Notes: a model not told the origin generated them from the sequence alone. A stretch of DNA of 64,000 bases from an uncultured Coriobacteriales bacterium (GCA_934636245.1 CAKUAI010000014.1:31258-95257); one strand, 5' to 3'. Positions 1-41,711 are shown, numbered from the stretch's first letter. Made by a program: numbers and translations.

Positions 1-63
1 CGACAATACAACCTCAGGGGTGATGTGCTTTTTAGCGTCCCATGCGCCCCACCGCACGAAAAA

Positions 64-92
64 GGCCCCGCGGGCGCGAAGCTCGCGGGGCC
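64..92. terminator. GC-rich hairpin GGCCCCGCG-N11-CGCGGGGCC just downstream of the minus-strand Fe-S gene
   Basis: Perfect 9-bp inverted repeat. The same structure recurs at 5624..5652 between convergent genes. There is no clear T-tract. Confidence 0.45.
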
Positions 93-163
93 TTGGGGAC
101 CGACCGGGGGTATGAGGGGGACGTCACGGCCGGCCCCACGTCAGGCGCCGAGGCGCCCAGGCC

Positions 164-793
164 TTACTGCATGGAGACGTCGCCGCCCTGCCAGGCCATG
201 CGGCGCAGGATGTAGACGCCCTGGGGCGCGTTGCCCTCGTCGTCCAGGCGGTAGAGGTCGCCCTCGGCGTACTCCTCCACGAAGTCGCCCAGGGTCTCGC
301 CGCGCGGGCCCTTGAAGGTCTCGATGCCCTCGTCGAGGTCGCCGTACCAGCGGGCCATGCCGCCGCACTGCGTGACGCACTGGGGCAGGCCGCCCTCGGA
401 GGTGATGCTCGCGCACAGGTCGCACTTCTCGGCGACGGAGGTGTCCACGTCGACGTAGCGGCAGCCGTAGGGGCAGGCCGTGAGGCACGCGCCGCAGCCG
501 ATGCACTGGTCGCGGTCGATCTGGACGGTGCCGTCCTCCTCGTTGATGCGCGAGGCGCCGGTGGGGCACACCGTCACGCACTCGGGGCTCGCGCAGTGCT
601 GGCAGGACACGGGCAGGAAGTACATGTCGACGTCGGGCCAGTTGCCGCCCTCCTGGCGGGGGAAGGGGCCCTGGCGCAGCACCTTGTTGCGGAAGGAGCC
701 GACGCGCACGTCGTTGACCGTCTTGCAGGCGACGATGCAGCCCAGGCAGCCGACGCAGCGGTTCAGGTCGGTGACGATAGTCTTGTGTGCCAT
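164..793 (-). CDS. 4x[4Fe-4S] ferredoxin-type electron-transfer subunit (DmsB/NrfC-like) of a molybdopterin oxidoreductase
   Basis: 209-aa ORF with Cys clusters CVGCLGCIVAC, CQHCASPECVTVCP, CIGCGACLTACP and CDLC...C. The ATG lies 3 nt after the stop of the upstream Mo-subunit gene. Confidence 0.9.
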   Translation of the reverse strand: MAHKTIVTDLNRCVGCLGCIVACKTVNDVRVGSFRNKVLRQGPFPRQEGGNWPDVDMYFLPVSCQHCASPECVTVCPTGASRINEEDGTVQIDRDQCIGCGACLTACPYGCRYVDVDTSVAEKCDLCASITSEGGLPQCVTQCGGMARWYGDLDEGIETFKGPRGETLGDFVEEYAEGDLYRLDDEGNAPQGVYILRRMAWQGGDVSMQ

Positions 794-796
794 CGC

Positions 797-3784
797 TTAC
801 GCCTCGTTTCGAATCTCGTAGTTGGGCATCCAGTCGAGCAGGCGCGGGTCGGAGGCGTCGCAGATGATGGGCGTGCCGTCTTCGCCGCAGGGCACCGGGT
901 TGCCGAAGGGGGAGTTCTCGGCCGTGGCCTTGTAGACCTTGACGTTGTAGGAGCGCAGGTAGGACGCGCCGCAGATGGGGTCCTGGTCGTCGGGGGTCAC
1001 CAGGCAGTTGATGGTGGACAGCTCGAAGCCGCCGCCGGCCTGGTCGAGCTCGGGGTACCACCACTGGTGCTCGCAGTTGATGACGCCGGGCTCCACGCCG
1101 TAGTACAGGTCCACGGTCTGGCGCACCTTGCCCTCCGGGCTCTCGATCCACACCCAGTCGCCCTGCCCCACGCCCAGCCTCTCGGCGTCGGCGGGGTTGA
1201 TCTCGCACTTGGGCACGGGCCACAGCTCGCGGCACCAGGGCAGCTGACGGTGCTCGGAGTGGAAGTACACCGGGATGCGGCGGCCGGTGGTCATGAGGAA
1301 CGGCCACTCCTCGACGATGGAGGGGTCGGCGAGCTCGGTGCGGGGCGCGGGCTCCCAGGAGGGAAGGTTGAACTTGCCCGAGGGCTCGTAGGTCTCCATG
1401 ACGGTGGACCAGAGCTCCTGCTTGCGGGTGGGCGTGGAGAAGCCCTTCATCGGGTTGCCGGCAGGCGTGAGACCCACAATCTTCGGCTCGCTCATCATGC
1501 CGGTCTCGTAGCGGCGGTACGTGCCCCAGACCTCGGGGTTGATCTCGCGGCAGTCCCACCAGCCGTGCTTCTGGAAGGCCTCCTTGTAGCCCTGCCAGTC
1601 AACGCCCATCGGGGCGACGACGCCCGAGAGCAGCGTCTCGACGTCGGGCCAGTAGTTGCCCTCGCCATAGCCCGAGGCGACCGGGTCGTCGCACCAATGC
1701 ACCCCCATGGCCTTGTACAGGTCGAGGACGATCTGCAGGTCGAACTTGCAGTCGGCGGGAGGCTCGATGCAGCAGCAGTTTGCACCCTGCGCACCGGTCG
1801 CGCCCTGCGAGAGGCGCGGGAAGTCGACCTCGAGCCAGTGGAGGACGGGCAGGATGATGTCGGCGGCGCCGGTCGTCGGGGTCTTCCACAGGTCCTGGAC
1901 CACAAAGAAGTCGAGGGCGTTGAGGGCGTCCCAGTACTTGAGGGAATTGCCCTGGTTCATGAAGCCGGAGGCCTCGCAGAGTCCACCGCGCACGGGGTAG
2001 GGGTCGCCCGTGAGGATTGCGTCGGCGACGGCGTTGGCATCGGCCCACTGCTGCCACCAAGACAAGGTCGGGATGCGATCATGGCCGAGGATCTTCTCAG
2101 GGAAGACGGAGAAGTCAACACCCTCGCCGTGCTCGGCGGCCAGAAGGGGCTGCGAGTCGTCCATGCGCTTGAACATGCCGCAGCTCGGGCCGCGCATGCC
2201 GGCGGGCGTGTCAAAGTTGCCGGTGATGCCGCAGAGGTTGTCGAGGGCGCGGTTGTTCTGAATGGCGTTGCAGGCGTGCTCGGCCGCGAGCATGTACTGC
2301 AGGCCGCCGTTACCGTACCCCGTGGAGGGGTCGATGGGCGTGGCCCAGGTGAGGGCGGCGTTGCGAATGTCGTCAGCCGAAACGCCGGTGATTTCCGCAG
2401 CAATCTCGGGCGTGAACTCATGGGCGCGAGCCGCATAGTGCTCCCAGACAGGCTTCATCTGGTAGGTTTTGCCGTCCTTGAGCGTGACCTCGAACTCGCC
2501 GTAGATGGCAGGGTCGATCTCGGGGTCGAACGGGCTCTGTTCGGCGATGCGGCCAGGGACCGTACCCTTGGGCAGGTTGGGCTGGGGGTTGTCGTAGAAC
2601 TTGTCCCACACGACGTCGGGCTCGTTCTCCCACAGGCCCGTCTGGGCATCGAAGTAGGTGAGGTGGCCGGAAGGGTCGTTCTCATGCAGCGGGTGGTCAG
2701 CGTCGGTGCCGGCAAGCTCGTCCCACACCATGAAGCGCTGGGGGCTGCCGCCCTCCTTGAGGTCGCACTCCTTGAGAAGGGTCGTGGACATCGTCTTGCA
2801 GAGGCTCCAGGCAATCTTATGCTGCACCGGCACTTCGCCGGAAGGCTCCATGCCGTCGACCACGAGGAAGGGGGCGTCGGTCCAGCGCTTCACGTACAGG
2901 TCGTTGTACAGCTTATTCTCGATGACGACATCGGTCCAGGCAAGAGCCAGTGCGCCGTCGGTGCCGGGCTTGAGGTACATGTGGATGTCGGCCTCGTGGC
3001 CCAGGTTGGTCATGCGCGGGTCGACGGAAATGTAGGCCTCGGCGGTCTTGGCAAGGTCAACCGTGGTACGGCAGCTCTCGTCGTAGTTGGAGATCTCGGA
3101 GGCGCCGCCCCAAGAGACGAAGACGCGGGGACGGTCGGTGGTGGCCATCCAGGAGTAGGAGTACTCCGAGACCATCATCGATGCCATGTGGCGCGGGCCC
3201 TTGCAGATCTGCCAGGCGGTCACCGCGTTGGGGCTTCCCGTCATCTGCAGCCACGCGGCATAGGCGTGCTGTGTCCAGATGCGGCTCGTGCCGCCCATGA
3301 AGAACAGCGACTCGGGGCCGTACTTGTCCATGAACTCATGGAACTTCTCGGCGATAGTGCCGTACGCCTCATCCCAGGAGATGCGCACCCAACCCGGGTC
3401 GGTGGAACCCTTGGGATTCGTGCGCTTCATGGGGTGGTAGACGCGGTTGGGATGATAGGCAGCCTGGATGGACGCCTGGCTCTTGGTGCAGCAGTTGCCC
3501 ATCGAATGGAACGCCGTCTCGGCGTCGCCCTCGACCTTGACCGCACGGCCGTCCTTCACGGTGACGATGACGCCGCACTCGTTCTTGCCGCAGGCGCGGC
3601 AGCAGGTGCGGACGAGCTTCACGCCGTCGCCCTGGTCGCCCATCTCGGTCTTGACAAGATCAGTCTTGTCGAGCGGAATCTCAGCAAGAGCGCTCAGGGG
3701 TGCGCTTGCAAAGGCCGCTGCCGCACCGGCGATTGCCGCCACTTTGGCAAACGTACGGCGCGTCATGCTTTTCTGCATGTCCAT
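797..3784 (-). CDS. Molybdopterin (bis-MGD, DMSO-reductase superfamily) oxidoreductase catalytic subunit, Tat-exported
   Basis: The ORF spans 797..3856. The preferred ATG is at 3784 (MDMQKSMTRRTFAKVAAIAGAAAAFA, a twin-arginine signal) with GGGAGG upstream. There is an N-terminal Cys motif CCRACGKNEC...C (FS0 cluster). The C-terminus resembles a molybdopterin-dinucleotide-binding domain (INPADAERLGVGQGDWVWIESPEGKV). Confidence 0.9.
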   Translation of the reverse strand: MDMQKSMTRRTFAKVAAIAGAAAAFASAPLSALAEIPLDKTDLVKTEMGDQGDGVKLVRTCCRACGKNECGVIVTVKDGRAVKVEGDAETAFHSMGNCCTKSQASIQAAYHPNRVYHPMKRTNPKGSTDPGWVRISWDEAYGTIAEKFHEFMDKYGPESLFFMGGTSRIWTQHAYAAWLQMTGSPNAVTAWQICKGPRHMASMMVSEYSYSWMATTDRPRVFVSWGGASEISNYDESCRTTVDLAKTAEAYISVDPRMTNLGHEADIHMYLKPGTDGALALAWTDVVIENKLYNDLYVKRWTDAPFLVVDGMEPSGEVPVQHKIAWSLCKTMSTTLLKECDLKEGGSPQRFMVWDELAGTDADHPLHENDPSGHLTYFDAQTGLWENEPDVVWDKFYDNPQPNLPKGTVPGRIAEQSPFDPEIDPAIYGEFEVTLKDGKTYQMKPVWEHYAARAHEFTPEIAAEITGVSADDIRNAALTWATPIDPSTGYGNGGLQYMLAAEHACNAIQNNRALDNLCGITGNFDTPAGMRGPSCGMFKRMDDSQPLLAAEHGEGVDFSVFPEKILGHDRIPTLSWWQQWADANAVADAILTGDPYPVRGGLCEASGFMNQGNSLKYWDALNALDFFVVQDLWKTPTTGAADIILPVLHWLEVDFPRLSQGATGAQGANCCCIEPPADCKFDLQIVLDLYKAMGVHWCDDPVASGYGEGNYWPDVETLLSGVVAPMGVDWQGYKEAFQKHGWWDCREINPEVWGTYRRYETGMMSEPKIVGLTPAGNPMKGFSTPTRKQELWSTVMETYEPSGKFNLPSWEPAPRTELADPSIVEEWPFLMTTGRRIPVYFHSEHRQLPWCRELWPVPKCEINPADAERLGVGQGDWVWIESPEGKVRQTVDLYYGVEPGVINCEHQWWYPELDQAGGGFELSTINCLVTPDDQDPICGASYLRSYNVKVYKATAENSPFGNPVPCGEDGTPIICDASDPRLLDWMPNYEIRNEA

Positions 3785-3891
3785 GTTCCTCCCTTGTGTT
3801 TCCTCTACGTCTTTGTGCATCCGAGGTCGTGCTCGGCGGCTGCACGGTGCAATCATTGACTACGCAGGGGGTCCGGGAGAACTTTCAGACT

Positions 3892-3963
3892 TATGGTTTG
3901 GTGTATGATTGGCGGCGCCAGGTGACCTGTCTGAAACCGTTCGGTTTTATGGGTTGACAGAAA
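3892..3963. promoter_or_regulatory. Two conserved intergenic islands: TATGGTTTGGTGTATGATT (3892..3910) and GTTTTATGGGTTGACAGAAA (3944..3963), separated by 33 nt
   Basis: These are the only alignable blocks between the two paralogous divergent intergenic regions (partner 9447..9531). The spacing is the same in both. The second island contains a TTGACA -35-like hexamer. Confidence 0.5.
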
Positions 3964-4010
3964 ACTCCCTGGTTACATGCGAATTTTTACCAAAGCACCT
4001 AAAAGGAACA

Positions 4011-5579
4011 ATGGAGATGCACGGCATGACTGAACAAAATGAGGCCAACGCCATGAACAGCGAAAGCAGCATCTCGGCGCTCGTACGACCCGATTTGTTG
4101 GGCTTCTCATTTCACCTGGCTTGGCTCTGCCTCTTCATATACAACGTGGTTCCCGGATTTGCCGGACGATCGGACCACAACATTGAGTTCGGCGTGTTCA
4201 ACCCCGTCTATTTTTACTCGATGGTCAGCCTCGTCGTCGTGCTTGGCTACGGAATCGCGAAGACAAAGAACTTCATGCACCTTGCGCGGTCGCGCGTTGG
4301 AGTTGTCGCGGCACCAGTTGCCTGCTCTCTTGGCACGCTCATCTACGCTCTCTCGGCATCGGGATTGACACCCGCCGCCCTCAACACCGCCCTGCTCGTT
4401 GTCGGCGGCATCCTGAGCGGCGCTGGCTCGGCGTTTTTGGCCGCACACTGGGCAAGCGCCTTCGGCCGGGCAAAGGCAAGGGCGTTCGTCGTCAACCTCC
4501 CGCTTATTTTTGCCGCCGTCCTTATCACGTGCCTGGCAATAACCTACGTCTTTGCCGCGATCGCGCTTGTGTTCGCCACGCTGCTCCCCCTAGCATCGGG
4601 CGGCTGCCTCATATATGCCGACCGCTATGCGGCGTCCCTGGCCGACCAGGCCCGCCCAGATACCGACAGAACCGAGTCGAAGCCTTCGCACTCCCGCCGC
4701 ATCTATTTGATACTCATCGCCGCCGTGTGCCTCATCGGCCTCACAACGGGAAGCCTCAACCAAATCAGGTCGATCAACGCGGGCTATTGTTTCGCCTTTT
4801 CATGCATCACTTCGGTGCTCATTCTCCTTATAACGGGCTGGCTTATTGTCCAAGACAATCCGAAGGCGTTTCTTCCCCTGTTCGTCGCGCCGCTCGTCGT
4901 TTTCCTCATTTTTGCACTGCCCCTCATCCGCTTCACTCCAAATGATGCGCCTGGTATCGTGTATGCCATAGGAAGCGTGACGCGTGAGCTTATGCTCATG
5001 TTCGAGGCAGTGCTGTTCGCGCTGCTCTTTGACTTGTCATGTGCCAAAACGTTCATGATCGGTCGAGTCGTCATGGCCCTGTCCGACCTCTGTGGTGCGC
5101 TGTGCGCGGCCGCCATCATGGAGCACCTGGGCAACCAGGCAGGTGCGCAGTTTGCAGGCGGCGTGCTTCTCGTTGGATCCGAGGTCATTATCGCAGGCCT
5201 GCTCATGATGTACCTGCTTCTTCGTCGCAAGTCTCTCGCCACGCCGTCGCTCAACACGCGTGCGGCCGGCGTAGATACAGCAGCCCAGGAGGCGACCACG
5301 CGCCCAGAAGACGCCGCGGACACATCGCAGCCAGATGAGAGCGCCGCATCGCAAAGCGAGATTGTGGCGAACCTCACCGCCGAGCGATTCGGCCTCTCCC
5401 CTCGCGAGGCCGACGTGCTGAGGCTGCTCGTCGCCGGCGAGTCAACCACTCAGATTCAAGACACGCTCTGCATCGCCCCCGGCACGTTCAACTACCACAT
5501 GCGCAACATCTACTCCAAGCTCGGCGTGCACTCCCGCCAGGAGCTGCTCGTTTTCATCTACAACCAGCCGGAACAATAA
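4011..5579 (+). CDS. Membrane-embedded LuxR/GerE-family transcriptional regulator (polytopic N-terminal sensor-like domain plus C-terminal HTH)
   Basis: The ORF spans 3909..5579; the preferred ATG is at 4011 after AAGGA. Many hydrophobic helices fill the first ~430 aa. The C-terminal HTH reads LSPREADVLRLLVAGESTTQIQDTLCIAPGTFNYHMRNIYSKLGVHSRQEL. Confidence 0.85.
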   Translation: MEMHGMTEQNEANAMNSESSISALVRPDLLGFSFHLAWLCLFIYNVVPGFAGRSDHNIEFGVFNPVYFYSMVSLVVVLGYGIAKTKNFMHLARSRVGVVAAPVACSLGTLIYALSASGLTPAALNTALLVVGGILSGAGSAFLAAHWASAFGRAKARAFVVNLPLIFAAVLITCLAITYVFAAIALVFATLLPLASGGCLIYADRYAASLADQARPDTDRTESKPSHSRRIYLILIAAVCLIGLTTGSLNQIRSINAGYCFAFSCITSVLILLITGWLIVQDNPKAFLPLFVAPLVVFLIFALPLIRFTPNDAPGIVYAIGSVTRELMLMFEAVLFALLFDLSCAKTFMIGRVVMALSDLCGALCAAAIMEHLGNQAGAQFAGGVLLVGSEVIIAGLLMMYLLLRRKSLATPSLNTRAAGVDTAAQEATTRPEDAADTSQPDESAASQSEIVANLTAERFGLSPREADVLRLLVAGESTTQIQDTLCIAPGTFNYHMRNIYSKLGVHSRQELLVFIYNQPEQ

Positions 5580-5623
5580 CGGCACACGCATCACATGGGC
5601 GATTTACGCCCCCAAACGCAAAC

Positions 5624-5652
5624 GGCCCCGCGGGCGCAAGGCTCGCGGGGCC
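5624..5652. terminator. Hairpin GGCCCCGCG-N11-CGCGGGGCC between the convergent LuxR (+) and Fe-S (-) genes
   Basis: Perfect 9-bp inverted repeat located between stop codons at 5579 and 5724. Confidence 0.5.
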
Positions 5653-5723
5653 GTGGGGGCCGACCGGGGGTATGAGGGGAACGTCACTGCCGGCCCCGTG
5701 TCAGGCGCCGAGGCGCCCGGGTC

Positions 5724-6353
5724 TTACTGCATCGAGACGTCGCCGCCCTGCCAGGCCATGTGGCGCAGGATGTAGACGCCCTGGGGGGCGTTGCCCTCGT
5801 CGTCCAGGCGGTAGAGGTCGTCGTCGGTGTAGGCCTCGACGAAGTCGCCCAGGGTCTCGCCGCGCGGGCCCTTGAAGGACTCGATGCCCTCGTCCAGGTC
5901 GCCGTACCAGCGGGCCATGCCGCCGCACTGCGTGACGCACTGGGGAAGCCCGCCCTCGGAGGTGATGGAGGCGCACAGGTCGCACTTCTCCGCCACCGAG
6001 GTGTCCACGTCGACGTAGCGGCAGCCGTAGGGGCAGGCCGTCAGGCACGCGCCGCAGCCGATGCACTGGTCGCGGTCGATCTGGACGGTGCCGTCCTCCT
6101 CGTTGATGCGCGAGGCGCCGGTGGGGCACACCGTCACGCACTCGGGGCTCGCGCAGTGCTGGCAGGACACGGGCAGGAAGTACATGTCGACGTCGGGCCA
6201 GTTGCCGCCCTCCTGGCGGGGGAAGGGGCCCTGGCGCAGCACCTTGTTGCGGAAGGAGCCGACGCGCACGTCGTTGACCGTCTTGCAGGCGACGATGCAG
6301 CCCAGGCAGCCGACGCAGCGGTTCAGGTCGGTGACGATAGTCTTGTGTGCCAT
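5724..6353 (-). CDS. 4x[4Fe-4S] ferredoxin-type subunit, paralogue of 164..793
   Basis: 209 aa. It differs from copy 1 at only a handful of C-terminal residues (for example EGIESFKG, EAYTDDDL, LRHMAW). Confidence 0.9.
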   Translation of the reverse strand: MAHKTIVTDLNRCVGCLGCIVACKTVNDVRVGSFRNKVLRQGPFPRQEGGNWPDVDMYFLPVSCQHCASPECVTVCPTGASRINEEDGTVQIDRDQCIGCGACLTACPYGCRYVDVDTSVAEKCDLCASITSEGGLPQCVTQCGGMARWYGDLDEGIESFKGPRGETLGDFVEAYTDDDLYRLDDEGNAPQGVYILRHMAWQGGDVSMQ

Positions 6354-6356
6354 CGC

Positions 6357-9338
6357 TTACGCCTCGTTTCGAATCTCGTAGTTGGGCATCCAGTCGAGCA
6401 GGCGCGGGTCGGAGGCGTCGCAGATGATGGGCGTGCCGTCTTCGCCGCAGGGCACCGGGTTGCCGAAGGGGGAGTTCTCGGCCGTGGCCTTGTAGACCTT
6501 GACGTTGTAGGAGCGCAGGTAGGACGCGCCGCAGATGGGGTCCTGGTCGTCGGGGGTCACCAGGCAGTTGATGGTGGACAGCTCGAAGCCGCCGCCGGCC
6601 TGGTCGAGCTCGGGGTACCACCACTGGTGCTCGCAGTTGATGACGCCGGGCTCCACGCCGTAGTACAGGTCCACGGTCTGGCGCACCTTGCCCTCCGGGC
6701 TCTCGATCCACACCCAGTCGCCCTGCCCCACGCCCAGCCTCTCGGCGTCGGCGGGGTTGATCTCGCACTTGGGCACGGGCCACAGCTCGCGGCACCAGGG
6801 CAGCTGACGGTGCTCGGAGTGGAAGTACACCGGGATGCGGCGGCCGGTGGTCATGAGGAACGGCCACTCCTCGACGATGGAGGGGTCGGCGAGCTCGGTG
6901 CGGGGCGCGGGCTCCCAGGAGGGAAGGTTGAACTTGCCCGAGGGCTCGTAGGTCTCCATGACGGTGGACCAGAGCTCCTGCTTGCGGGTGGGCGTGGAGA
7001 AGCCCTTCATCGGGTTGCCCGCGGGAGTCTCGCCGATAGCACTCATCCTGCCCGTTTCATAACGGCGGTAGGTGCCCCAGACCTCGGGGTTGATGGCACG
7101 GCAGTCCCACCAGCCGTGCTCCTGGAAGGACTCCTTGTACTCCTGCCAGGTAAGCCCCGTCGTTGAGATGGTGCGGTCGTAAAGTTGCTCAGTCGTGGGC
7201 CACTGAACACCCTCGGGCAGACCGTACGACACGGGGTCATCAGCCCACGGAATGCCCATCCTCTTATAGACATCAAGAATGATGTCGACATCGAAGTGGC
7301 AGTCTGCGGGAGGCTCGATGCAGCGGCAGTTCGCGCCCTGGGCGCCGGTGGCACCCTGGGACAGGCGCGGGCAGTCGACCTCGAGCCAGTGGCACACAGG
7401 CAGCACGATGTCGGCGGCGCCCACCGTGGGGGTCTTCCACAGGTCCTGGACCACGAAGAAGTCGAGCGAGTTGAGCGCGTCCCAGTACTTGAGGGAGTTG
7501 CCCTGGTTCATGAAGCCGGAGGCCTCGCAGAGTCCTCCGCGCACGGGGTAGGGGTCGCCCGTGAGCATGGCGTCGGCGATGGCGTTGGCGTCGGCCCACT
7601 GCTGCCACCAGCCAAGCGTGGGGATCTTGTCAATACCAACGATCTTGTCAGTCCACAGGCTCCAGTCGACACCATCATAGTGGCCAGAGGTAATCGTCGG
7701 CTGAGCGTCATCAACGCCTGCATACAGACCCAGCGAAGGACCGCGCATGCCGGCAGGCGTGTCGAAGTTGCCGGTGATGCCGCAGAGGTTATCGAAGATA
7801 CGGTTGTTCTGGATGGCGTTGCAGGCGTGCTCGGCCGCGAGCATGTACTGCAGGCCGCCGTTGCCGTAGCCCGTGGAGGGGTCGATGGGCGTGGCCCATG
7901 TCAGGCAGGCGTTCTCAATCTCATCGGCAGGAATGCCGGTGATCTTGGAGGCAGTGTCGAGGTCGTACTTGGCGGCCTCGGCGGCATAGAGCTCCCAGAC
8001 GGGCTGCATGGAGTAGGTCTTGCCGTCCTTGAGCGTGACCTCGAACTCGCCGTAGATGGCGGGGTCGATCTCGGGGTCGAACGGGGACTCCTCGGCGATG
8101 CGGCCGGGCACGACGCCCTTGGGGAGGTTGGGCTGGGGGCTCTCGTAGAACTTGTCCCACACGACGTCGGGCTCGTCCTCCCACAGGCCCGTCTCGGCGT
8201 CGAAGTAGGTCAGGTGGCCGGAGGGGTCGTTCTCATGCAGCGGGTGGTCGGCGTCGGTGCCGGCGAGCTCGTCCCACACCATGAAGCGCATAGGCGAGCC
8301 GCCCTCGACAAGGTCGCACTCCTTGAGCAGGCGCGTGGCCATGGGCTTTCCGCTCGTCCACTCAATCTTATGGTCAATGGGCACGCCGCCGGAGGGCTCC
8401 ATGCCGTCGACCACGAGGAAGGGGGCGTCGGTCCAACGCTTGACGTAGAGGTCCTTGTAGAGCTTGTTCTGAATAATAAGGTTGGTCCACGCGAGACCGA
8501 GGGCGCCGTCGGTGCCGGGCTTGAGGTACATGTGGATGTCGGCCTCGTGGCCCAGGTTGGTCATGCGCGGGTCGACAGACACATAAGTGTCGGCACTCGT
8601 GGCGATATCAACCGTGGTACGGCAGCTCTCGTCGTAGTTGGAGATCTCGGAGGCGCCGCCCCATGCGACGAAGACGCGGGGACGGTCGGTGGTGGCCATC
8701 CACGAGTAGGCGAACTCGGAGACCATCTCGGTGGCCATGTGGCGCGGGCCCTTGCAGATCTGCCAGGCGGTCACGGCGTTGGGCGAACCCACGAGCTGAA
8801 GCCATGAGCCGTAGGCGTGCTGGGTCCAGATGCGCGAGGTGCCGCCCATGAAGAACATGGACTCTCCGCCGTACTTGTCCTTGAGCTCCTGGAACTTCTC
8901 GGCGATGGTGTCGTACGCCTCGTCCCAGGAGATGCGCACCCAGCCGGGGTCGGTTGAGCCCTTGGGGTTCGTGCGCTTCATGGGGTGGTAGACGCGGTTG
9001 GGGTGGTAGGCGGCCTGGATGGACGCCTGGCTCTTGGTGCAGCAGTTGCCCATCGAGTGGAACGCCGTCTCGGCGTCGCCCTCGACCTTGACCGCGCGGC
9101 CGTCCTTGACGGTGACGATGACGCCGCACTCGTTCTTGCCGCAGGCGCGGCAGCAGGTGCGGACGAGCTTCACGCCGTCGCCCTGGTCGCCCATCTCGGT
9201 CTCGACAAGCTCGTTGTCGAGCGGCAGGGCCGACTCGGCGAGCGCGGCGAGCGGGGCCCCCGCGAAGGCCGCGGCCGCGCCGGCGATTGCCGCCACTTTG
9301 GCGAACGTACGACGCGTCATGCTTTTCTGCGTGTCCAT
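6357..9338 (-). CDS. Molybdopterin oxidoreductase catalytic subunit, Tat-exported, paralogue of 797..3784
   Basis: The ORF spans 6357..9401. The preferred ATG is at 9338 (MDTQKSMTRRTFAKVAAIAGAAAAFAGA) after GGGAGG. It has the same FS0 Cys motif. The C-terminal ~220 aa are identical to copy 1, while the N-terminal ~770 aa are clearly diverged. Confidence 0.9.
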   Translation of the reverse strand: MDTQKSMTRRTFAKVAAIAGAAAAFAGAPLAALAESALPLDNELVETEMGDQGDGVKLVRTCCRACGKNECGVIVTVKDGRAVKVEGDAETAFHSMGNCCTKSQASIQAAYHPNRVYHPMKRTNPKGSTDPGWVRISWDEAYDTIAEKFQELKDKYGGESMFFMGGTSRIWTQHAYGSWLQLVGSPNAVTAWQICKGPRHMATEMVSEFAYSWMATTDRPRVFVAWGGASEISNYDESCRTTVDIATSADTYVSVDPRMTNLGHEADIHMYLKPGTDGALGLAWTNLIIQNKLYKDLYVKRWTDAPFLVVDGMEPSGGVPIDHKIEWTSGKPMATRLLKECDLVEGGSPMRFMVWDELAGTDADHPLHENDPSGHLTYFDAETGLWEDEPDVVWDKFYESPQPNLPKGVVPGRIAEESPFDPEIDPAIYGEFEVTLKDGKTYSMQPVWELYAAEAAKYDLDTASKITGIPADEIENACLTWATPIDPSTGYGNGGLQYMLAAEHACNAIQNNRIFDNLCGITGNFDTPAGMRGPSLGLYAGVDDAQPTITSGHYDGVDWSLWTDKIVGIDKIPTLGWWQQWADANAIADAMLTGDPYPVRGGLCEASGFMNQGNSLKYWDALNSLDFFVVQDLWKTPTVGAADIVLPVCHWLEVDCPRLSQGATGAQGANCRCIEPPADCHFDVDIILDVYKRMGIPWADDPVSYGLPEGVQWPTTEQLYDRTISTTGLTWQEYKESFQEHGWWDCRAINPEVWGTYRRYETGRMSAIGETPAGNPMKGFSTPTRKQELWSTVMETYEPSGKFNLPSWEPAPRTELADPSIVEEWPFLMTTGRRIPVYFHSEHRQLPWCRELWPVPKCEINPADAERLGVGQGDWVWIESPEGKVRQTVDLYYGVEPGVINCEHQWWYPELDQAGGGFELSTINCLVTPDDQDPICGASYLRSYNVKVYKATAENSPFGNPVPCGEDGTPIICDASDPRLLDWMPNYEIRNEA

Positions 9339-9446
9339 GTTCCTCCCTTTCAAATCACGTACATCGATATGCACCGGGCTAAACACCCGATGCGTGGACA
9401 AGACACATTTTTGCGCCAGCTCTGCTTTCGTTTAAACACATGTGCC

Positions 9447-9565: not shown

Positions 9566-11131
9566 ATGGCAAAGATACAACCGAATGCTTCAGGTCTCTC
9601 TGCAGAAACACCTGAAACGAGGCTTGCCCTGGCATCACTTGTCCAACCGGACCTTCTCGGCTTTGCCTTCCACCTTTCCTGGCTCTGCCTCTTCATGTAC
9701 AACGTCATTCCGGGATTCGCTGGTAACGAAGACGCCGGTTTCAACGCGCTTAATCCTGTATATTTCTTCTCTGCCATTAGCCTGATGGCAGTGCTGTGCT
9801 TCGGCATAGCCAAGACGCGCACCTTCATGCAGATTGTTCGCTCAAAAACAGGATGCTATGTAGCACCAATTGTCTGCTCAATCGGCACCCTCTTTTACGC
9901 ACTTTGCGCCATGAACGTCATCCCGCAAACCGCAATGACGCCGCTACTATTGCTCGGCGGCATCATGACGGGAGCAAGTTCGGCTATGCTTGCGGCACAT
10001 TGGGCAAGCGTGTTCGGACGCGCAAAGGCACGAGCGGTCATCATGAACTTCACGATCATACTCGTAGCCGTTCTCATAGCCTGTCTTGCCATCTCGTATT
10101 TGCTCCCCACCATGTCGCTTATCGTGGCAACGCTGTTGCCGCTTGCCTCAGGTGCATCTCTTATATATGCCGACAAACACGCTTTTGAATCCGCTGGCTC
10201 GAATACTCCCCAGGTCAAGCGCCGCCGCAATCAAAAGGCATACGCCATTTTGTCTGGTGCCGTTGCATTGCTGGGACTTTCCACGGGATGCCTTCCCCAA
10301 TTCAGCATCGATGGGAGCAACTTCGACCAGCTGTTTTATTCCATAACGTCGGTCATCACCCTGGGAGCAATTGGTTGGCTTGTTGCCAGGGAAGAACGCT
10401 CCGCATTGCCCGCGTTGTATATTGCACCGCTTGCCATTCTTGGCGTTTTCGCGTTGCCCTACATTCGATTTACAGGCAACGATACCGTAGGGCTTTTCTA
10501 CGCTTTGGGAAATGCCTCGCTTGAACTCATGCTGCTTTTCGAAGCCGTGCTGTTCGCGCTGCTTTTTGATTTTTCTTGCGCACGTACATACATGATTGCA
10601 CGCCTTACGATGGCCGTTTCCGACCTGGGAGGCTGGCTCTTGTCATGTGTAATCGTCCAAACATGGGGCGCAGGAGCAGTAGTACAAGCTGCGGCGGCCG
10701 CCATCCTCATCGGCTCAGAAGTCGTAATCACAGCATTACTAGTTACATACCTACTTCTGCGTCGCAAGTCCCTCACCACATCTGACCTCAACACGCGCGC
10801 GGCGGGCGTGGATTCTGTAGACGAAAGTGACGAAACAGATGACGAGGTCGTCAAGAGGCGCATGACACCAGCCGATATTGATTCCTCAACTTACGGTGCC
10901 ACAACGGCCGCAGATTTCGCGGCGGAACGCTTTGGCCTCTCCCCTCGCGAGGCCGACGTGCTGAGGCTGCTCGTCGCCGGCGAGACGACCGCGCAGATTC
11001 AAGAAGCACTCTGCATCGCCCCGGGCACCTTCAACTACCACATACGCAACATCTTTACCAAGCTCGGCGTGCACTCCCGCCAAGAGCTTCTCATATGCGT
11101 CCGTGACCTGCAAGAACAGCGAAAACAATAA
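9566..11131 (+). CDS. Membrane-embedded LuxR/GerE-family regulator, paralogue of 4011..5579
   Basis: 521 aa with a polytopic hydrophobic N-terminal domain. The C-terminus reads LSPREADVLRLLVAGETTAQIQEALCIAPGTFNYHIRNIFTKLGVHSRQEL. GC looks lower than in neighbouring genes, by eye. Confidence 0.85.
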   Translation: MAKIQPNASGLSAETPETRLALASLVQPDLLGFAFHLSWLCLFMYNVIPGFAGNEDAGFNALNPVYFFSAISLMAVLCFGIAKTRTFMQIVRSKTGCYVAPIVCSIGTLFYALCAMNVIPQTAMTPLLLLGGIMTGASSAMLAAHWASVFGRAKARAVIMNFTIILVAVLIACLAISYLLPTMSLIVATLLPLASGASLIYADKHAFESAGSNTPQVKRRRNQKAYAILSGAVALLGLSTGCLPQFSIDGSNFDQLFYSITSVITLGAIGWLVAREERSALPALYIAPLAILGVFALPYIRFTGNDTVGLFYALGNASLELMLLFEAVLFALLFDFSCARTYMIARLTMAVSDLGGWLLSCVIVQTWGAGAVVQAAAAAILIGSEVVITALLVTYLLLRRKSLTTSDLNTRAAGVDSVDESDETDDEVVKRRMTPADIDSSTYGATTAADFAAERFGLSPREADVLRLLVAGETTAQIQEALCIAPGTFNYHIRNIFTKLGVHSRQELLICVRDLQEQRKQ

Positions 11132-11216: not shown

Positions 11217-11957
11217 ATGAGCCAGATGGAAAACGACGAAATCGAGTGCGGCGACCCTGATTGCGGAGCGCAGGCAGCATGGCAGCCCGGCCCAACGCTG
11301 CAGGAATCGATTGCAAAGGCCGCAGGGCACCGCGATGCCGATGATGCCAAGGCTTTGGAGAAGCTGATGCAGCGCATGTCCACGCGACGCAGCTCCCTGC
11401 TGGGCATTCTTGACCTTTGCCGCGAGCCCCACGGCGCCGCCGAGGTCGATGCCTGCGTCGCTAAGCTGCAGGCGCACAATGCAAGCGTCTACGACGGGGC
11501 CGCGCTTTGCTCCATGCTGCAGCAGGCAGGCGCGCTTGAGACCGTGGCCGATGAAGACGAGACGGCCGACACCGACGACGAGCCCCAGATCGAGGTTGTC
11601 GACGGAGTCGAGTACCTGCGCCCGGCCAAGCCCGCTCAGAAGCTCTGGCGGACAACTGAGATTGGCCTTGCATACCTCGACAGCTTCGACCCGAAGGCCG
11701 ACCTTGCCCGCCTGCTGGCGGACGACGCCGCGTACATGGACATCTACCTGCGCGTGCTCGACATGTGCGCCGACAACGGCGGCACCACGACGCCCGCGCT
11801 TTCGGCTGCCATCGACAAGGACCCCCTCGTGCAGTTGCCGCGCTTCTTTGCCCAGCATTTCACCGAGCGTCTTGAGAAGGCCGGCGCAGTGGAATGGGAC
11901 GGTGCCTGGAAAATCACCGACTTGGGGCGCTCCTACCTTGAGGACGCATCGCACTAA
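11217..11957 (+). CDS. Hypothetical acidic cytoplasmic protein with two similar helical, possibly winged-helix-like halves
   Basis: The ORF spans 11208..11957. The ATG at 11217 lies 9 nt after GAGGAG. There is no signal peptide or TM segment. Internal similarity: LLGILDLCREPHGAAEVDACV resembles YLRVLDMCADNGGTTTPALSA. I recognised no family. Confidence 0.55.
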   Translation: MSQMENDEIECGDPDCGAQAAWQPGPTLQESIAKAAGHRDADDAKALEKLMQRMSTRRSSLLGILDLCREPHGAAEVDACVAKLQAHNASVYDGAALCSMLQQAGALETVADEDETADTDDEPQIEVVDGVEYLRPAKPAQKLWRTTEIGLAYLDSFDPKADLARLLADDAAYMDIYLRVLDMCADNGGTTTPALSAAIDKDPLVQLPRFFAQHFTERLEKAGAVEWDGAWKITDLGRSYLEDASH

Positions 11958-12056: not shown

Positions 12057-12917
12057 ATGAACCGCGAGGAATGCACCAAGAACCGCGTTATCAACCCCAA
12101 TTTCGACGCCTCCCCCAAGCCTGAGGCAGTGGCCCAGCTCACGCCCACCCCTGAGCTCATCGCCTCCCTCGCCGCCGCAGAGAAGGCACCCCATGCAGCA
12201 AGGACGCTGGGCGACATCGACCTGGGGAAGATGGAGGCAGAGGAGCTTGAAGAGCTCGCCGGCGCCTGCGAGTCGCGCGCAAACATGTATGCGCTGCTCA
12301 GCCGTGTCTATCGCGTTGAGGCCGACCAGGCCCTTCTTGACCAGCTGCAGGCAGCGAACTATGCAGCGAACACGGGCAACAAGGACGTCGACGAGGGGTA
12401 TCGCCTGCTCGTGAAGTGGCTGGGGCAGACCTGGGAGCACAGCCTGCTCGACCTTGCGAAGGACTACGTGCGCGCGTTCATCGGCTACACCGGCGACCAC
12501 GCAAGCGCCGCTTACCCCTTCGAGAGTGTGTACCGCTCCGAGAAGCACCTGCTGATGCAGGAATCTCGTGACGAGGTGCTGGCCTGCTACCGCGCCGCCG
12601 GCCTTGAGAAGGACGAGAGTTGGCGCGAAGGCGAGGACCATGTGGCGTTGGAGTTCGAGTATATGAGCACCATGGCAACCCGCTCCGCCGATGCCTTGCG
12701 CTCGGCGGACACGAAGCTTGCCCAGGGCCTGCTCAACGACCAGTCGCATTTCCTGCAGGACCATCTCAACGCATGGGTGCCCAACTTCACGAAGGATGTG
12801 GAGCGCTGCGCAACCACGAAGTTCTACCGCGGCTTTGCACTCATCACGCGCGGATACCTCGAGTGCGAGATGGAGCTCTTCGGCGACCTGGCCGCGCAGG
12901 TAGAAAAGGCCGCGTAG
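12057..12917 (+). CDS. TorD/DmsD-family redox-enzyme maturation chaperone with a ~70-aa N-terminal extension
   Basis: The core YPFESVYRSEKHLLMQESRDEVLACYRAAGL...EDHVALEFEYMS is typical of the TorD/DmsD/NarJ family. Confidence 0.8.
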   Translation: MNREECTKNRVINPNFDASPKPEAVAQLTPTPELIASLAAAEKAPHAARTLGDIDLGKMEAEELEELAGACESRANMYALLSRVYRVEADQALLDQLQAANYAANTGNKDVDEGYRLLVKWLGQTWEHSLLDLAKDYVRAFIGYTGDHASAAYPFESVYRSEKHLLMQESRDEVLACYRAAGLEKDESWREGEDHVALEFEYMSTMATRSADALRSADTKLAQGLLNDQSHFLQDHLNAWVPNFTKDVERCATTKFYRGFALITRGYLECEMELFGDLAAQVEKAA

Positions 12918-14099: not shown

Positions 14100-15725
14100 T
14101 TAGCAGCCTTCGTTCTCCACCATGTCGATAAGCTCCTGCTGCTTGTGCACGCCGAGCTTCGTGTAGATGTGCATCATATGAGTGCGGGCGGTGCCTTCTG
14201 CAATGTTGAGCTCGCGTGCCACAACAGAAAGCGTGCGGCCGCGGGCAAGCAAGAGCAGTACATCGCGCTCGCGCGGGGTCAAGTCGCAGCGGGCGGCAAC
14301 CACCTCGCAGCGGGTCTCGAGCGACTCGGCAGCCTCGCCGCTCATGTGGGAACCCTCGCCCATGCGGCCCACAAACCCCACCTTGGAAAGCACGTCCTCA
14401 GGCAAAACGAGAACGACCAGCACAACAAGAACCAGAATGCACATGAGCGCCAAAGCTGACATGTCAAGTGTGCCGGCAAGGATGGGCGGTACCACGATGC
14501 GCGACAACAGCGTGCCCGCTCCCATGCCGACATAGGTCATCGCCACGCCCCACCCAAACACAAACAGCGGACGCGGCACAGCCCCCTGCCTGGACAGCCC
14601 GACCAGCAATACCCAAAACAGCAGGTCAAAAAACTCATAGCCGACCGTCACCACGGCAATGGAGACCACGGTGAATCGGTCCATGAACATGGTGAGAATC
14701 GCAAACCCGGCCACCATGCAAGGAAGCGACAACCGATACACGAGCATGACATCAAAGCGCTCTCGAAACATCAGCGCAAACACCGCAAGCACGGCACCCA
14801 CGGCGAAGACGGCCAGAAACGCGTAGTTGTCCGCCACAAACGACGGAACTCCACCCTCGACTGTCGCGGCCGGGAACGAATCGAGACAGCGTCCCACCAG
14901 GGAAAACACCGCGATGGATGCCATCAGGCGGACGAAGGTCGTAAGCGAAACCGCCTCGCTCTGCTCGTCTGCGGCACGAGAATCACACATACCGCCAGCT
15001 TGATTGCGTGATTCCTGCTCTTTCAAGCTCAAAGCCACCGCACCGTCGCCCACACGATGCGCGTAAAGCAACAGAAGCGACAGGGCAGGCAACACATAAA
15101 GGCACATGAGCAGCGCCGAATCGGGCAAGACTATCATGATGACCGCCATTGCGATGGCACCCATGGGGACCGACAGAAGCGCCGTGGCCATCCCAAAGCG
15201 GCTGAAACGGATGCCCCATTCTACCTGCAGCAAAGCTGAAGAAGCTCCGCACAGCGCAAAGGCAACCAAGAGAAGGGGCTTCATCAACGTTGACGCAGCA
15301 ACCCCAAGCATGCAGAGGGAAGCGATGCAGCATGCAATATTGGCGAGGGCAAATCGGACCGAATCGGCAACAGGCGCATCGCTTAAGTCTTTGGAAGCGT
15401 CCACCCCTTCGTTGCGCACGGCACGGCGAGTCGGGCTACCCGGGCGATGCAGGCGCGAAAGGCACGACACAAGTATCGCCGCGAGCGCACCGGCAAACAG
15501 GTACACCTGGTCGTATCCAAACAGGCCGGACTCGATGAGACTGTAACGGGCCGCAAAGGCCAGAAATCCCACGACCCAGGCGTGACAGAGGCCAAAACCG
15601 AGCGCAAGAACGACAAGCTCAAACGGATCGGGCTTGTCATGCCCCTCCCCCGCGGCCGCACCCATCGCCCCGCCTTTGGTGCGCGCCCGCGTATCCTCAC
15701 CTGCACCCATGTGCCCACCCCTCAC
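14100..15725 (-). CDS. Membrane-embedded LuxR/GerE-family regulator
   Basis: 541-aa ORF with multiple hydrophobic helices. The C-terminus reads LTPRERDVLLLLARGRTLSVVARELNIAEGTARTHMMHIYTKLGVHKQQEL. The start is uncertain; in-frame Met codons occur at codons 6 and 21. Confidence 0.8.
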   Translation of the reverse strand: MRGGHMGAGEDTRARTKGGAMGAAAGEGHDKPDPFELVVLALGFGLCHAWVVGFLAFAARYSLIESGLFGYDQVYLFAGALAAILVSCLSRLHRPGSPTRRAVRNEGVDASKDLSDAPVADSVRFALANIACCIASLCMLGVAASTLMKPLLLVAFALCGASSALLQVEWGIRFSRFGMATALLSVPMGAIAMAVIMIVLPDSALLMCLYVLPALSLLLLYAHRVGDGAVALSLKEQESRNQAGGMCDSRAADEQSEAVSLTTFVRLMASIAVFSLVGRCLDSFPAATVEGGVPSFVADNYAFLAVFAVGAVLAVFALMFRERFDVMLVYRLSLPCMVAGFAILTMFMDRFTVVSIAVVTVGYEFFDLLFWVLLVGLSRQGAVPRPLFVFGWGVAMTYVGMGAGTLLSRIVVPPILAGTLDMSALALMCILVLVVLVVLVLPEDVLSKVGFVGRMGEGSHMSGEAAESLETRCEVVAARCDLTPRERDVLLLLARGRTLSVVARELNIAEGTARTHMMHIYTKLGVHKQQELIDMVENEGC

Positions 15726-15936: not shown

Positions 15937-17583
15937 ATGGGCAACAACGTATCGCGTCGCAACTTCGTGAAGGGGGCCGGTGCCGCCGCCGGCATGGCCG
16001 CGCTCACCGGCGCGTCTATTGCGACGGCCGACGAGGCCACCGACAACTCCTGGCTGCCTGCAGCTTGGGACTACGAGTGCGACCTGCTCGTCATCGGCTA
16101 TGGCGGAGCAGGCATGTGGGCCTCGCTCATCGGCGCTGACGAGTGCGGCCAGGAAGTCCTGATCCTTGAGAAGGCCCCCGTGGAGGGTGGCGGAAACTCC
16201 CGCATCAACAACGGCGAGTGGACCATCATTCCCGAGGACAAGAAAGAGACCTTCAAGGAGTACCTGCGCACGTTCTCCAAGGGCGCCATCGCCGACGACA
16301 TGGCCGACGCCTGGGTCGAGGAGTGCGCGCGCAACACCGAGTACGCCGACAAGTATGGCATGACGTACGAGATCGTGGACTCGGCCCTAGCCGGCTCCAT
16401 TCCCGAGTACTACAAGCTCGACGAGAACAAATTCGCAGGCTGCCAGCGCCTTTCCTCCGTTGAGGGCTTCGGCATGAAGACTTTCCACGAGCTCGACGCC
16501 AAGCGCGTCGAACTGGGCGCCGAGATTCTGTTCGACTGCCATGACGAACACCTCATCCAGAACCCCACCACGCGCGAGATCGTGGGAGCCTACACGCTCA
16601 TCGGCGACGACGAGACCCCCAAGGCCGTCAAGGCGCGCAAGGGCGTCATCATGTGCTGCGGCGGCTTTGAGTTCAACGAGGAGCTCAAGAACAAGTACCT
16701 CAAGATCTATCCCTTCAAGTTCGAGGGCTGGCGCTTCAACACTGGCGACGGCATCCGCATGGTCGAGGAGGTCGGCGCGAAGCTCTGGCACATGGACAAC
16801 GTCATCTCGATGACCTCCATGTACACCCGCGACCCCGAGAACGACTTCTCCATCCTCGCCTTCCCGTCCGGCCCCTCCTACATCTGGGTGAACCGCCTGG
16901 GCAAGCGCTTCGTCGACGAGAACAACACCGGCTCGCCTCACAACGGCTGGCACACGCTCATGTCGTTCGACGACCGCATCTGCGACTTCGACCGCATTCC
17001 TACCTGGTGCGTCTTTGACCAGGCCACCTTCGAGGCCGGCAAGCTCTCCACGAGCCAGGGCGACTTCTTCGAGTGCGGCAACTACGCAAGCGACCTGCCC
17101 GATGAGATTCGCGACTGGGACGGCTGGAGCCAGGACAACCAGGCCGAGGTCGACAAGGGCTGGATCATGAAGGCCGACACCCTCGAGGAGCTCGCCGCGC
17201 AGATGAAGGACTGGGACTCCTGGATGGATGCCGACACGCTCGCAGCAACCGTCGCCGAGTACAACGGCTTCTGCGAGCAGGGTCGCGACGAGCGCTTCGA
17301 CCGCGCCGCCTCCACGCTCGTGGCCCTCTCCGAGGAAGGCCCCTACTACGCCTACGCCATTTACCCGGGCTCCTGCTCCACGCTCGGCGGCCCCGAGAAG
17401 AACGTGAACGGCCAGGTGCTCGACCCGGCCGGCAACCCCATCCCTCGTCTGTACGCAGCCGGCTGCTTCGGCAACTTCCAGGATCACTCCTACGGAATCA
17501 CCGGCGGCAACAACGCCGAGAACCAGGTGTGGGGACGCATCAGCGCTCGCCATGCCTCCAGCCTGGAGAACTGGGACGCCTAA
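15937..17583 (+). CDS. Tat-exported FAD-dependent oxidoreductase (fumarate reductase/succinate dehydrogenase flavoprotein-like, FAD_binding_2)
   Basis: The N-terminus is MGNNVSRRNFVKGAGAAAGMAALTGASIATA. The dinucleotide fold is DLLVIGYGGAGMWASL. The C-terminal family signature is RLYAAGCFGN. GGGGAAG precedes the ATG. Confidence 0.85.
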   Translation: MGNNVSRRNFVKGAGAAAGMAALTGASIATADEATDNSWLPAAWDYECDLLVIGYGGAGMWASLIGADECGQEVLILEKAPVEGGGNSRINNGEWTIIPEDKKETFKEYLRTFSKGAIADDMADAWVEECARNTEYADKYGMTYEIVDSALAGSIPEYYKLDENKFAGCQRLSSVEGFGMKTFHELDAKRVELGAEILFDCHDEHLIQNPTTREIVGAYTLIGDDETPKAVKARKGVIMCCGGFEFNEELKNKYLKIYPFKFEGWRFNTGDGIRMVEEVGAKLWHMDNVISMTSMYTRDPENDFSILAFPSGPSYIWVNRLGKRFVDENNTGSPHNGWHTLMSFDDRICDFDRIPTWCVFDQATFEAGKLSTSQGDFFECGNYASDLPDEIRDWDGWSQDNQAEVDKGWIMKADTLEELAAQMKDWDSWMDADTLAATVAEYNGFCEQGRDERFDRAASTLVALSEEGPYYAYAIYPGSCSTLGGPEKNVNGQVLDPAGNPIPRLYAAGCFGNFQDHSYGITGGNNAENQVWGRISARHASSLENWDA

Positions 17584-24337: not shown

Positions 24338-24382
24338 ATCAGTCCACCCCTTCAATGGTTGTTCGTCATCACTCAGTGTCAA

Positions 24383-30193: not shown

Positions 30194-30616
30194 GGGTAGT
30201 ACTCCTTTGCTCGATACGTGCCTGGGTTACGTGACAGTACTTGCAACGCTTGGACGACGAACTCTGTCAATGGGTGTGGGGCGTAACGCCCCGCGTGCCC
30301 CTTGGACAACGCACACTTTGCTCCAGAATCGCCTAAAGCACCTCGCACCAGCAGGTCGAACTTATCTACCAGGTCTTTTGTTGTTTCTCAGCCTCGATTT
30401 TTCACGCCTCATACCGTCCTCACCCTCGTGGGTCGATTTTGCGCGACCTGGCATTTTGTTGATTCAGGCTGTCAAGCGCTGATACACTGACTGGTGCGCA
30501 TCAAAGAAAGGCAGGCATTCGGGCCTGGGGCAACTTCCGACGTCAAGGCCGGAAGTAGTTCGCGACCAGCTTGAGTGGCGCGCATTCAAGCATGGGGGAA
30601 CCAAGGAAGGCACGCA

Positions 30617-36738: not shown

Positions 36739-37106
36739 AGCGCAATTCCTTTCTCAGGTGGATGCGTACACCGCTCGCCCCTTGGCGGGCGGACAATTTG
36801 AGACCCTAAGCCGCAAACGACAGGCGCGCATCACCGCCAACGATGATTGGACGTGCGGAAATTGGAATGCCATTCCGGGTGAAGGTCTCACCAATTGCGG
36901 TGATGACAGGGTTGAACTGGTGTCTTGTCCAATACGGAGATTCTCGGTTCGCCAGGATGGCAGCATGGGACGAGACCTGCACCAAGGATGAGACAGGTTG
37001 TACCTTCCGCATGAGAGCTCTTTGTCTGTCGGGCAGCAACTGGCAAAATGTGCGACAATGCTGTGAGAGGGATGACAAGGCAGCCGAACAATACAAGGGA
37101 AGGCAC

Positions 37107-41424: not shown

Positions 41425-41586
41425 GGCCGCGCGTTGTTCTAGCCTGATTCGGCCTGATTCAGCTCGACATTCCCCAAGGGCGCCGCCGTAGCCACTCGTG
41501 GGCACGGCGGCGCTCTGCGTTTTGGGAGCAAGTTGGGAGCGCGGCGGGGCCGCGAGCAGGCCGCGGGGCTCAGGCGCTCGCGTAAC

Positions 41587-41672: not shown

Positions 41673-41711
41673 TCTACTGACAGACACGCGCAGCCCCATC
41701 CCATACCCTCT

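Follow-up and report, generated by a model that had tools for sequence, protein, structure and literature searches.

How do two sets of genes that have diverged over most of their length come to be identical, base for base, over almost a kilobase? The question is raised by a locus near the start of a 64,000-nucleotide (nt) stretch of DNA (the window; GCA_934636245.1 CAKUAI010000014.1:31258-95257) from an uncultured Coriobacteriales bacterium. This gut, Eggerthellaceae-like organism carries two tandem cassettes, modules A and B, each consisting of a LuxR regulator, a bis-molybdopterin guanine dinucleotide (bis-MGD) molybdoenzyme exported by twin-arginine translocation (TAT), and a 4Fe-4S subunit. 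The catalytic and Fe-S genes of both modules lie on the minus strand, and the GerE/LuxR regulator is divergent. A block spanning parts of two genes is identical in the two cassettes, and its likely source is recent nonreciprocal homologous recombination, that is, gene conversion, between copies lying 5,560 bp apart. The features concerned are as follows.

483..1459, minus strand: identical block, module A copy; the last 220 codons and stop of catA, a 3-nt spacer, and codons 1-103 of fesA
6043..7019, minus strand: identical block, module B copy; the C terminus of catB and the N-half of fesB
797..3778, minus strand: catA, a predicted 993-amino-acid (aa) TAT-exported bis-MGD molybdopterin oxidoreductase, catechol-dehydroxylase-like
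164..793, minus strand: fesA, a 209-aa 4Fe-4S subunit (Fer4_11)
164..482, minus strand: the C-half of fesA, with 20 differences from fesB (6.3%; number of synonymous substitutions per synonymous site [dS], 0.175)
3909..5579, plus strand: LuxR-A, a GerE/LuxR helix-turn-helix (HTH) regulator with about 12 predicted transmembrane (TM) helices, divergent from catA
5580..5615, no strand: junction of the tandem units, between the LuxR-A stop and the terminator region of fesB
5724..6353, minus strand: fesB, the 209-aa 4Fe-4S subunit of module B
6357..9338, minus strand: catB, the 993-aa paralogue, or allele class B
9566..11131, plus strand: LuxR-B, the membrane LuxR-type regulator of module B

An earlier reading of the window (the sequence-only reading) had reported that 483..1459 and 6043..7019 do not differ at all, and recomputation at a fixed offset of 5,560 bp gives the same answer, 0 mismatches in 977 positions. 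That reading had also put about 22 differences in the adjacent 141..482 against 5701..6042, where exactly 22 are counted, and had held that the copies need indels to align past 1460. Mismatches do become dense from 1460 onward, and a 9-nt indel lies at 1480..1488. No N letters occur anywhere in the window. Aligned with BLAST and MAFFT, the modules as a whole (56..3795 versus 5616..9349) are 88.4% identical, with 100-bp bins ranging from 51% to 100%. Apart from the block, no identical run between the modules exceeds 94 bp. At the protein level, catB matches catA at 81.5% of residues 1-772 and at 100% of residues 773-993. The six residues that differ between fesA and fesB all lie past residue 158, and the two regulators share 52.6% aa identity.

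Where does the block begin and end? It had been described as covering the C-terminal ~220 aa of the catalytic subunit, which is correct, and two-thirds of the Fe-S subunit, which is too much; codons 1-103 of 209 are half. The peptide AGNPMKGF begins at residue 799 of a 1019-aa open reading frame (ORF), at nt 1462. The other edge, 482/483, cuts through a CxxCxxCxxxCP cluster motif of the Fe-S protein, its third Cys motif (CIGCGACLTACP). The block ends thus respect neither gene nor motif boundaries.

Relatives were gathered by exact look-ups and collection scans, and about 130 loci, given L numbers below, were fetched. The comparison contigs are metagenome assemblies, several of them clearly short-read (k77, k141). 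A GENECONV-style test was run on the columns polymorphic among A, B, and four relatives, with 20,000 permutations. A equals B at 301 of 301 polymorphic columns in the block, and the longest matching run in any permutation was 42, which bears out the mosaic that had been proposed. Even when only the milder mismatch rate of the Fe-S flank is used, the log10 P for the identity of the block is about -22.

Could the protein itself have held the block constant? The sequence-only reading had offered selection on the electron-transfer interface as its alternative, and purifying selection on a shared intersubunit interface would preserve identity without any recombination. The stretch is indeed conserved in relatives, the Fe-S proteins being 94 to 97% identical to those of L002 and L003, and an extreme G+C content at third codon positions (GC3, 0.97-0.99) restricts the synonymous states that are possible. 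Protein-level selection, though, cannot erase synonymous differences. Estimated by the Nei-Gojobori method, A/B dS is 0 in the block (about 222 synonymous sites), as against 0.49 in the N-part of the catalytic gene and 0.175 in the Fe-S C-half. The intergenic spacer in the block is identical as well. Because synonymous sites are also identical, unlike those of the flanks, protein constraint cannot explain the block. What constraint alone looks like is seen at Fe-S residues 104-158, where A and B encode the same protein with about 13 nucleotide differences. Nor does near-absolute synonymous constraint hold in all relatives; compared with the sister-species orthologue L002, the same stretch has 41 changed sites (dS, ~0.1), and compared with L004 it has 122. 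Finally, the canonical alpha-beta electron-transfer element of this enzyme family, through which electrons enter from the beta subunit, is the N-terminal FS0 cluster motif of the catalytic subunit (CCRACGKNEC), which lies near nt 3600, outside the block. Constraint on its own is effectively refuted by the synonymous data, and we give it next to no chance.

Codon usage along the locus is uneven. GC3 is 0.97-0.99 in the block and both Fe-S genes, falling to 0.88 in the N-parts of catA and catB and to 0.59-0.72 in LuxR-A and LuxR-B. The high values could reflect strong codon bias or GC-biased conversion in a recurrently homogenized part. Between species (the window versus L002 and L003), dS is 0.02-0.10 in the 3' part and 0.33 in the catB N-part, which suggests that the 3' part has also been exchanged or homogenized between lineages or is under codon-level constraint.

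What, then, are A and B to each other? The tandem, with its junction at 5580..5615, is also present in the independent assemblies L043/L040/L128 (a 115-kb scaffold), L129 (a 45-kb k141 contig), L044, L045, and L001. Other lineages carry a single cassette, A-type only in L048, L130-L132, and L047 and B-type only in L002, L003/L049, L053, and L133, and the flanks of these single-cassette loci are about 90 to 97% identical to the window lineage. The common context consists of an M24 peptidase, a TorD-like chaperone, and a 246-aa protein on one side of the cassette and an FAD reductase, a LuxR regulator, PEPCK, and MFS on the other. Since sister lineages carry A only or B only in the same context, A and B are two old allele classes of one conserved locus, both of them stacked in tandem in the window lineage. 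The earlier description of diverged paralogues therefore stands as far as divergence outside the block goes, but not in the sense of simple paralogues that arose in situ. Within this group of close gut relatives, the two classes are far apart in the regulator and in enzyme codons 1 to ~773, and they share a "constant" 3' part, made up of enzyme domain IV and the Fe-S gene.

This bears on how the edges of the block are to be understood. When A is compared with B across lineages (L048A with L002 or with L133B), the dense mismatches likewise end at 1460. The 1459/1460 edge is thus the old edge of the A/B dimorphic region, predating the recent event rather than marking its limit. The homology on which strand exchange depends is lost there too, with a 9-nt indel and ~30% mismatch. 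Within the block stretch, A-versus-B pairs from different lineages show 21 to 31 differences (2 to 3%), the level of A versus A or B versus B. Independently derived copies would therefore be expected to differ at 20 to 50 sites, not 0.

The histories of neighboring segments are also incongruent. In its N-part, catA matches L048A at 98.9% and catB of the same genome at 82.7% (nucleotide level). In the block it is the other way round, A matching B of the same genome at 100% and L048A and L002 each at 95.8%. LuxR-A is about 90% identical to the L048 regulator. Along 1171..3920, comparison with L048 (Ga0129314_1000554) gives 97 to 100% identity in the catA N-part and promoter region and about 80 to 96% in LuxR-A and both flanks, which indicates that a putative segment of ~2.7 kb was recently exchanged between the window lineage and L048. 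Exchange between lineages thus occurs, because the catA N-part reaches 98.9% to L048 but LuxR-A and the flanks only about 90%. Within the catalytic gene, the proportion of synonymous differences (pS) in 40-codon bins runs from 0.08 (the FS0 domain) to 0.86, a mosaic of ages consistent with many older exchanges rather than uniform divergence.

Such exchange opens a second explanation. The cassette may have been duplicated recently, after which the regulator and catalytic N-part of one copy were replaced by the other allele class from a sister lineage, so that the block is simply the part that was never replaced. The predominance of single-cassette loci among related lineages speaks for this account, as do the coincidence of the 1459/1460 edge with the edge of the species-wide dimorphism, the demonstrable import into catA from an A-only lineage despite flanks at ~90%, and a background divergence among tandem strains of only ~0.3%. 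Left unexplained are the 6.3% divergence of the Fe-S C-half and the 11% divergence downstream of it; a second import, ending at 482/483, would be required. LuxR-A, at ~90% to the L048 regulator, resembles the flanks, so module A does not look like a fresh import as a whole. Nor does a young duplication account for the strain-specific patches in paralogue state described below (L043, L129, and L044), and on balance we consider it unlikely.

Two further lines of comparison were tried and set aside. L046/P0002, 84.6% aa identical to the catA N-part, was considered as an outgroup of the A lineage that would polarize the block as B-type. It was rejected because its regulator is 35% identical to LuxR-A and LuxR-B alike, its context differs, and A-only lineages also have a B-like 3' part. 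An age argument, under which the tandem long predates the block, is weak alone, given the ~0.3% background and the fact that the LuxR-A differences between L044 and the window are clustered imports. A megablast search (at least 300 bp) for tandem modules elsewhere found no long near-identical repeats outside the lineage among the ~130 loci; the only other self-repeats, in L059, L060, and L077, are 75 to 89% identical.

If conversion made the block, do closely related strains show it at work? They differ in where the identity of A and B starts and stops, and two small patches in module B stand out.

8577..8607, minus strand: catB patch of 31 bp (A equivalent, 3026..3056); L043 differs from the window at 13 sites, all in the catA state
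6135..6219, minus strand: part of the B block (A equivalent, 575..659); L129 carries four L002-like states, and window B equals A there

All 13 differences between L043 and the window in 13 kb fall in the first of these patches, and all 4 differences between L129 and the window in 6.3 kb fall within the 85 bp of the second, at 6135, 6168, 6215, and 6219. The catB patch is bordered by runs of 74 bp and 56 bp that are identical in A and B, and it could be a short A-to-B conversion patch polymorphic between strains or a path switch by the assembler. In L044 and L045, the Fe-S C-half of module A and the region downstream of it are in the B state at A/B-distinguishing sites from 482 to 63, and the segment 164..482 is 100% B-type. 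Within contig L044, the two copies share 452 bp at 100% identity. The window's A-type haplotype of the Fe-S C-half is shared in part with the A allele of L047, and it looks ancestral for module A.

At the other end of the block, sites 1452/1451/1361 read G/C/T in the A copies of L001, L044, L045, and A-only L048, but C/G/C in window A, in window B, and in the B orthologues L003 and L053. The k77 contig L001 ends 78 nt past its last A-specific single-nucleotide polymorphism (SNP), as would be expected because an exact repeat beyond that SNP would produce such a break. Sites 1452/1451/1361 point to transfer from B to A, and 575..659, judged from L129, points from A to B. A single donor direction was accordingly rejected, the block ends pointing opposite ways. 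Each patch is suggestive by itself, and taken together they are convincing; they point to ongoing conversion between the copies in both directions. Among the 15 members listed of a 249-member protein cluster, none was a conspecific copy in which the block was clearly unconverted.

Gene conversion, as the sequence-only reading had proposed, is thus the best explanation, on the strength of synonymous and spacer identity, boundaries that are ignored, and ends that vary among strains. How might it operate? The constant parts of the two modules are near-perfect direct repeats. Strand exchange of the RecA type would take place between them, and as mismatches were corrected or DNA was resynthesized in repair, stretches of one copy would repeatedly be written over the other; the patches observed measure from tens of bases to several hundred. 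At its catalytic end (1361..1459) the block would reflect a B-to-A transfer and in its Fe-S part (575..659) an A-to-B transfer, so the 977 identical bases were probably put together by two or more events running in opposite directions. The 1459/1460 edge would be where A/B homology collapses and the 482/483 edge where the last tract ended.

Several points weigh against conversion or soften it. The inconsistent direction of transfer at the two block ends means that a composite history must be assumed, and with the ~0.3% background noted above, the case for copies older than their identity would allow is weak taken alone. The remaining points concern the nature of the assemblies. When a repeat is collapsed into one node, a graph assembler writes that node out twice, so a few true differences between A and B could have been erased, and small mosaic patches in short-read contigs can arise by path switching between paralogues or co-occurring strains. 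Carried to its limit, this becomes a third explanation, in which similar copies or co-occurring strains were collapsed into one node written twice, or the tandem itself was misjoined. Several observations make it worth considering. The window's catA is found on ~115-kb contigs of metagenome assemblies, a 977-bp exact repeat exceeds usual short-read inserts, and the short-read contigs L001, L042, L129, and L044 break off within the block or at its edge. Four B-copy differences (B-specific SNPs) in the block are carried by L129, which elsewhere matches the window. A true repeat would also yield contig breaks at the block, however, and the tandem-only junction 5580..5615 occurs in contigs from at least five samples or studies and from more than one assembler (k77, k141, and scaffolded). 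Copies more than about 1 to 2% apart would not collapse, so the near-identity is real, and contig L044 contains its 452 bp from both copies at 100%. An artifact is quite improbable as the whole explanation. The near-identity of the copies and their tandem order are robust; the exact zero, coming from assemblies, is less secure.

How does conversion at this locus compare with what is known? Gene conversion and concerted evolution of duplicate genes are well established in bacteria, as in tufA/tufB of Salmonella and in rRNA operons. In Mycobacterium tuberculosis, gene conversion has been described in an outbreak and at antigen- and virulence-associated loci (PMC12046097, PMC13061034), as have rearrangements in a duplicated PE_PGRS gene pair (PMC1762029). 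The present case is like known bacterial conversion in having an identical tract, synonymous sites included, within diverged paralogues; ends unrelated to gene boundaries; and tracts that are polymorphic among strains, run in both directions, and depend on local homology. It is unlike it in that the partners are operon cassettes in tandem, 5.56 kb apart, with a tract extending over two genes and a spacer, and in that the "paralogues" are allele classes that also segregate singly in sister lineages. The process is ordinary in kind, one more example of its class. It is new for this enzyme family, and it is confirmatory rather than surprising.

And what do the enzymes do? Judged from their sequences, modules A and B would encode enzymes of the catechol dehydroxylase type. 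The catalytic subunits match Molybdop_Fe4S4, Molybdopterin, and Molydop_binding (PF04879, PF00384, and PF01568) and carry a twin-arginine signal, SMTRRTF; all of their NCBIfam matches, equivalogs included, are far under the cutoff. The best match in the PDB is 2e7z, acetylene hydratase (E = 1.7e-50), followed by thiosulfate/polysulfide reductase (6e-30). By alignment the block corresponds roughly to 2e7z residues 545-727, which we take to be mainly the C-terminal beta-barrel domain IV. The Fer4_11 gene lies 3 nt downstream of the catalytic gene in each module, and the GerE regulators have 10 to 12 hydrophobic segments. An earlier survey (PMC7028382) reports acetylene hydratase as the characterized enzyme nearest to the gut catechol dehydroxylases, and it included enzymes according to how close they stood to acetylene hydratase and to Dadh. 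Like the gut Eggerthellaceae catechol dehydroxylases Dadh, Cadh, and Hcdh (PMC7028382, PMC11887054), the modules combine a bis-MGD subunit of ~990 aa that carries a TAT signal and has acetylene hydratase as its nearest structure with an adjacent 4Fe-4S subunit, and they occur as a paralogue cluster in a Coriobacteriia host. Their regulators resemble the divergent membrane LuxR type with many TM helices known for these enzymes (PMC9734109). Unlike the Dadh, Cadh, and Hcdh loci of E. lenta, which include a membrane-anchor gene, modules A and B have none next to them; there is no third gene after fesA or fesB, and the adjacent 246-aa protein is free of hydrophobic segments. An anchor is missing from the smaller Gordonibacter-type enzymes as well, but they lack the TAT signal too (PMC7028382).

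Paralogue clusters of these enzymes have been hypothesized to be "hot spots for duplication and diversification," and an analogy has been drawn to the reductive dehalogenase (rdhA) paralogue clusters of Dehalococcoides (PMC11887054). The likeness lies in the many substrate-specialized respiratory reductase paralogues, each with dedicated regulators and variable among strains; the enzyme family and cofactor are different, and no claim of conversion is made for rdhA. The phrase "gene conversion" is absent from the texts of PMC7028382 and PMC11887054, and a literature search turned up no relevant paper on such conversion in Eggerthella or this family of enzymes.

Some details of the gene models deserve mention. 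The catA frame is open up to 3856, and the start at 3778 (MDMQKSMTRRTF) agrees with public gene calls, which place the start of LuxR-A at 4017 and that of LuxR-B at 9695. Exact look-ups with the 1019-aa and 1014-aa ORFs gave no match, because the real start is a downstream ATG, whereas the Fe-S proteins and the 993-aa catA were matched. The window's exact catB is absent from the record by exact look-up.

The ends of the repeat units have features of their own.

56..163, minus strand: 3' end of repeat unit A, downstream of fesA, 88.9% identical to 5616..5723
5616..5723, minus strand: 3' end of repeat unit B, downstream of fesB
5379..5549, plus strand: LuxR HTH-coding patch of 171 bp, 88.9% identical to 10922..11092, at the opposite end of the homology between the units

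Near-identical terminator-like GC-rich hairpins with a T-run lie on the minus strand at 64..92, after fesA, and at 5624..5652, after fesB. The A/B homology stops at 56/5616, just past these hairpins, and the tandem junction 5580..5615 comes next. L002, whose regulator is B-type, and L048, whose regulator is A-type, both have the A-like version of the HTH patch, the version in the window's LuxR-B being the odd one out. Beyond module B, the 246-aa protein, which is acidic and has no Pfam match (11217..11957), adjoins a TorD/NarJ-like chaperone (Nitrate_red_del; 12057..12917). The pair is kept beside the cassette in every lineage examined and may serve as a shared maturation pair for both molybdoenzymes.

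Farther along the window, from 14100 to 60013, lies a reductase island in which LuxR-type regulators stand beside FAD_binding_2 flavoprotein reductases.

14100..15725, minus strand; 25174..26682; 30575..32080; 36843..38642: further LuxR-type regulators (at least four)
15937..17583; 22781..24382, minus strand; 28136..30193, minus strand (with an FMN_bind domain): FAD_binding_2 reductases
34828..36738, minus strand; 42925..44508, minus strand; 57926..60013, minus strand: FAD_binding_2 reductases, continued

A sequence of ~360 bp is present there in three copies with 76 to 92% identity (41480..41842, 44810..44987, and 46692..47056). At 60317..61900, on the minus strand, a 527-aa protein has a Beta-lactamase2 (class A-like) domain (E = 6e-56).

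Can the locus as a whole be seen as something more than a site of conversion? One tentative idea, which we regard as possible but doubtful, is that it is a natural cassette system. A "variable" unit, comprising the sensor-regulator and the substrate-binding two-thirds of the enzyme, would be recombined between gut Eggerthellaceae lineages, while "constant" anchors would be kept near-identical by recurrent conversion. There would be two or more deeply diverged classes of the variable unit, along with mosaics of them. The anchors would be enzyme domain IV and the Fe-S subunit on one side and the region of the LuxR HTH and the 246-aa protein on the other, and conversion might be GC-biased, given the GC3 of 0.97-0.99. 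If this is true, specificity modules could be (i) stacked in tandem, (ii) reshuffled patchwise, or (iii) lost. The most divergent A/B patches (codons ~321-360, 441-480, 521-600, and 681-760 of the 993 aa) would then mark the determinants of substrate specificity.

For practical work, short-read metagenome-assembled genomes will break or misassemble at such loci, and whole-gene phylogenies will be misleading. Perfect direct repeats of this kind predict frequent deletion or amplification of modules, and the unconverted patches are natural pointers to specificity-determining regions. The catechol dehydroxylases of gut Coriobacteriia influence what becomes of polyphenols from the diet, of neurotransmitters, and of drugs. 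This locus offers a concrete mechanism of diversification together with a population snapshot of it, with two allele classes, tandem stacking, patchwise conversion, and exchange between lineages.

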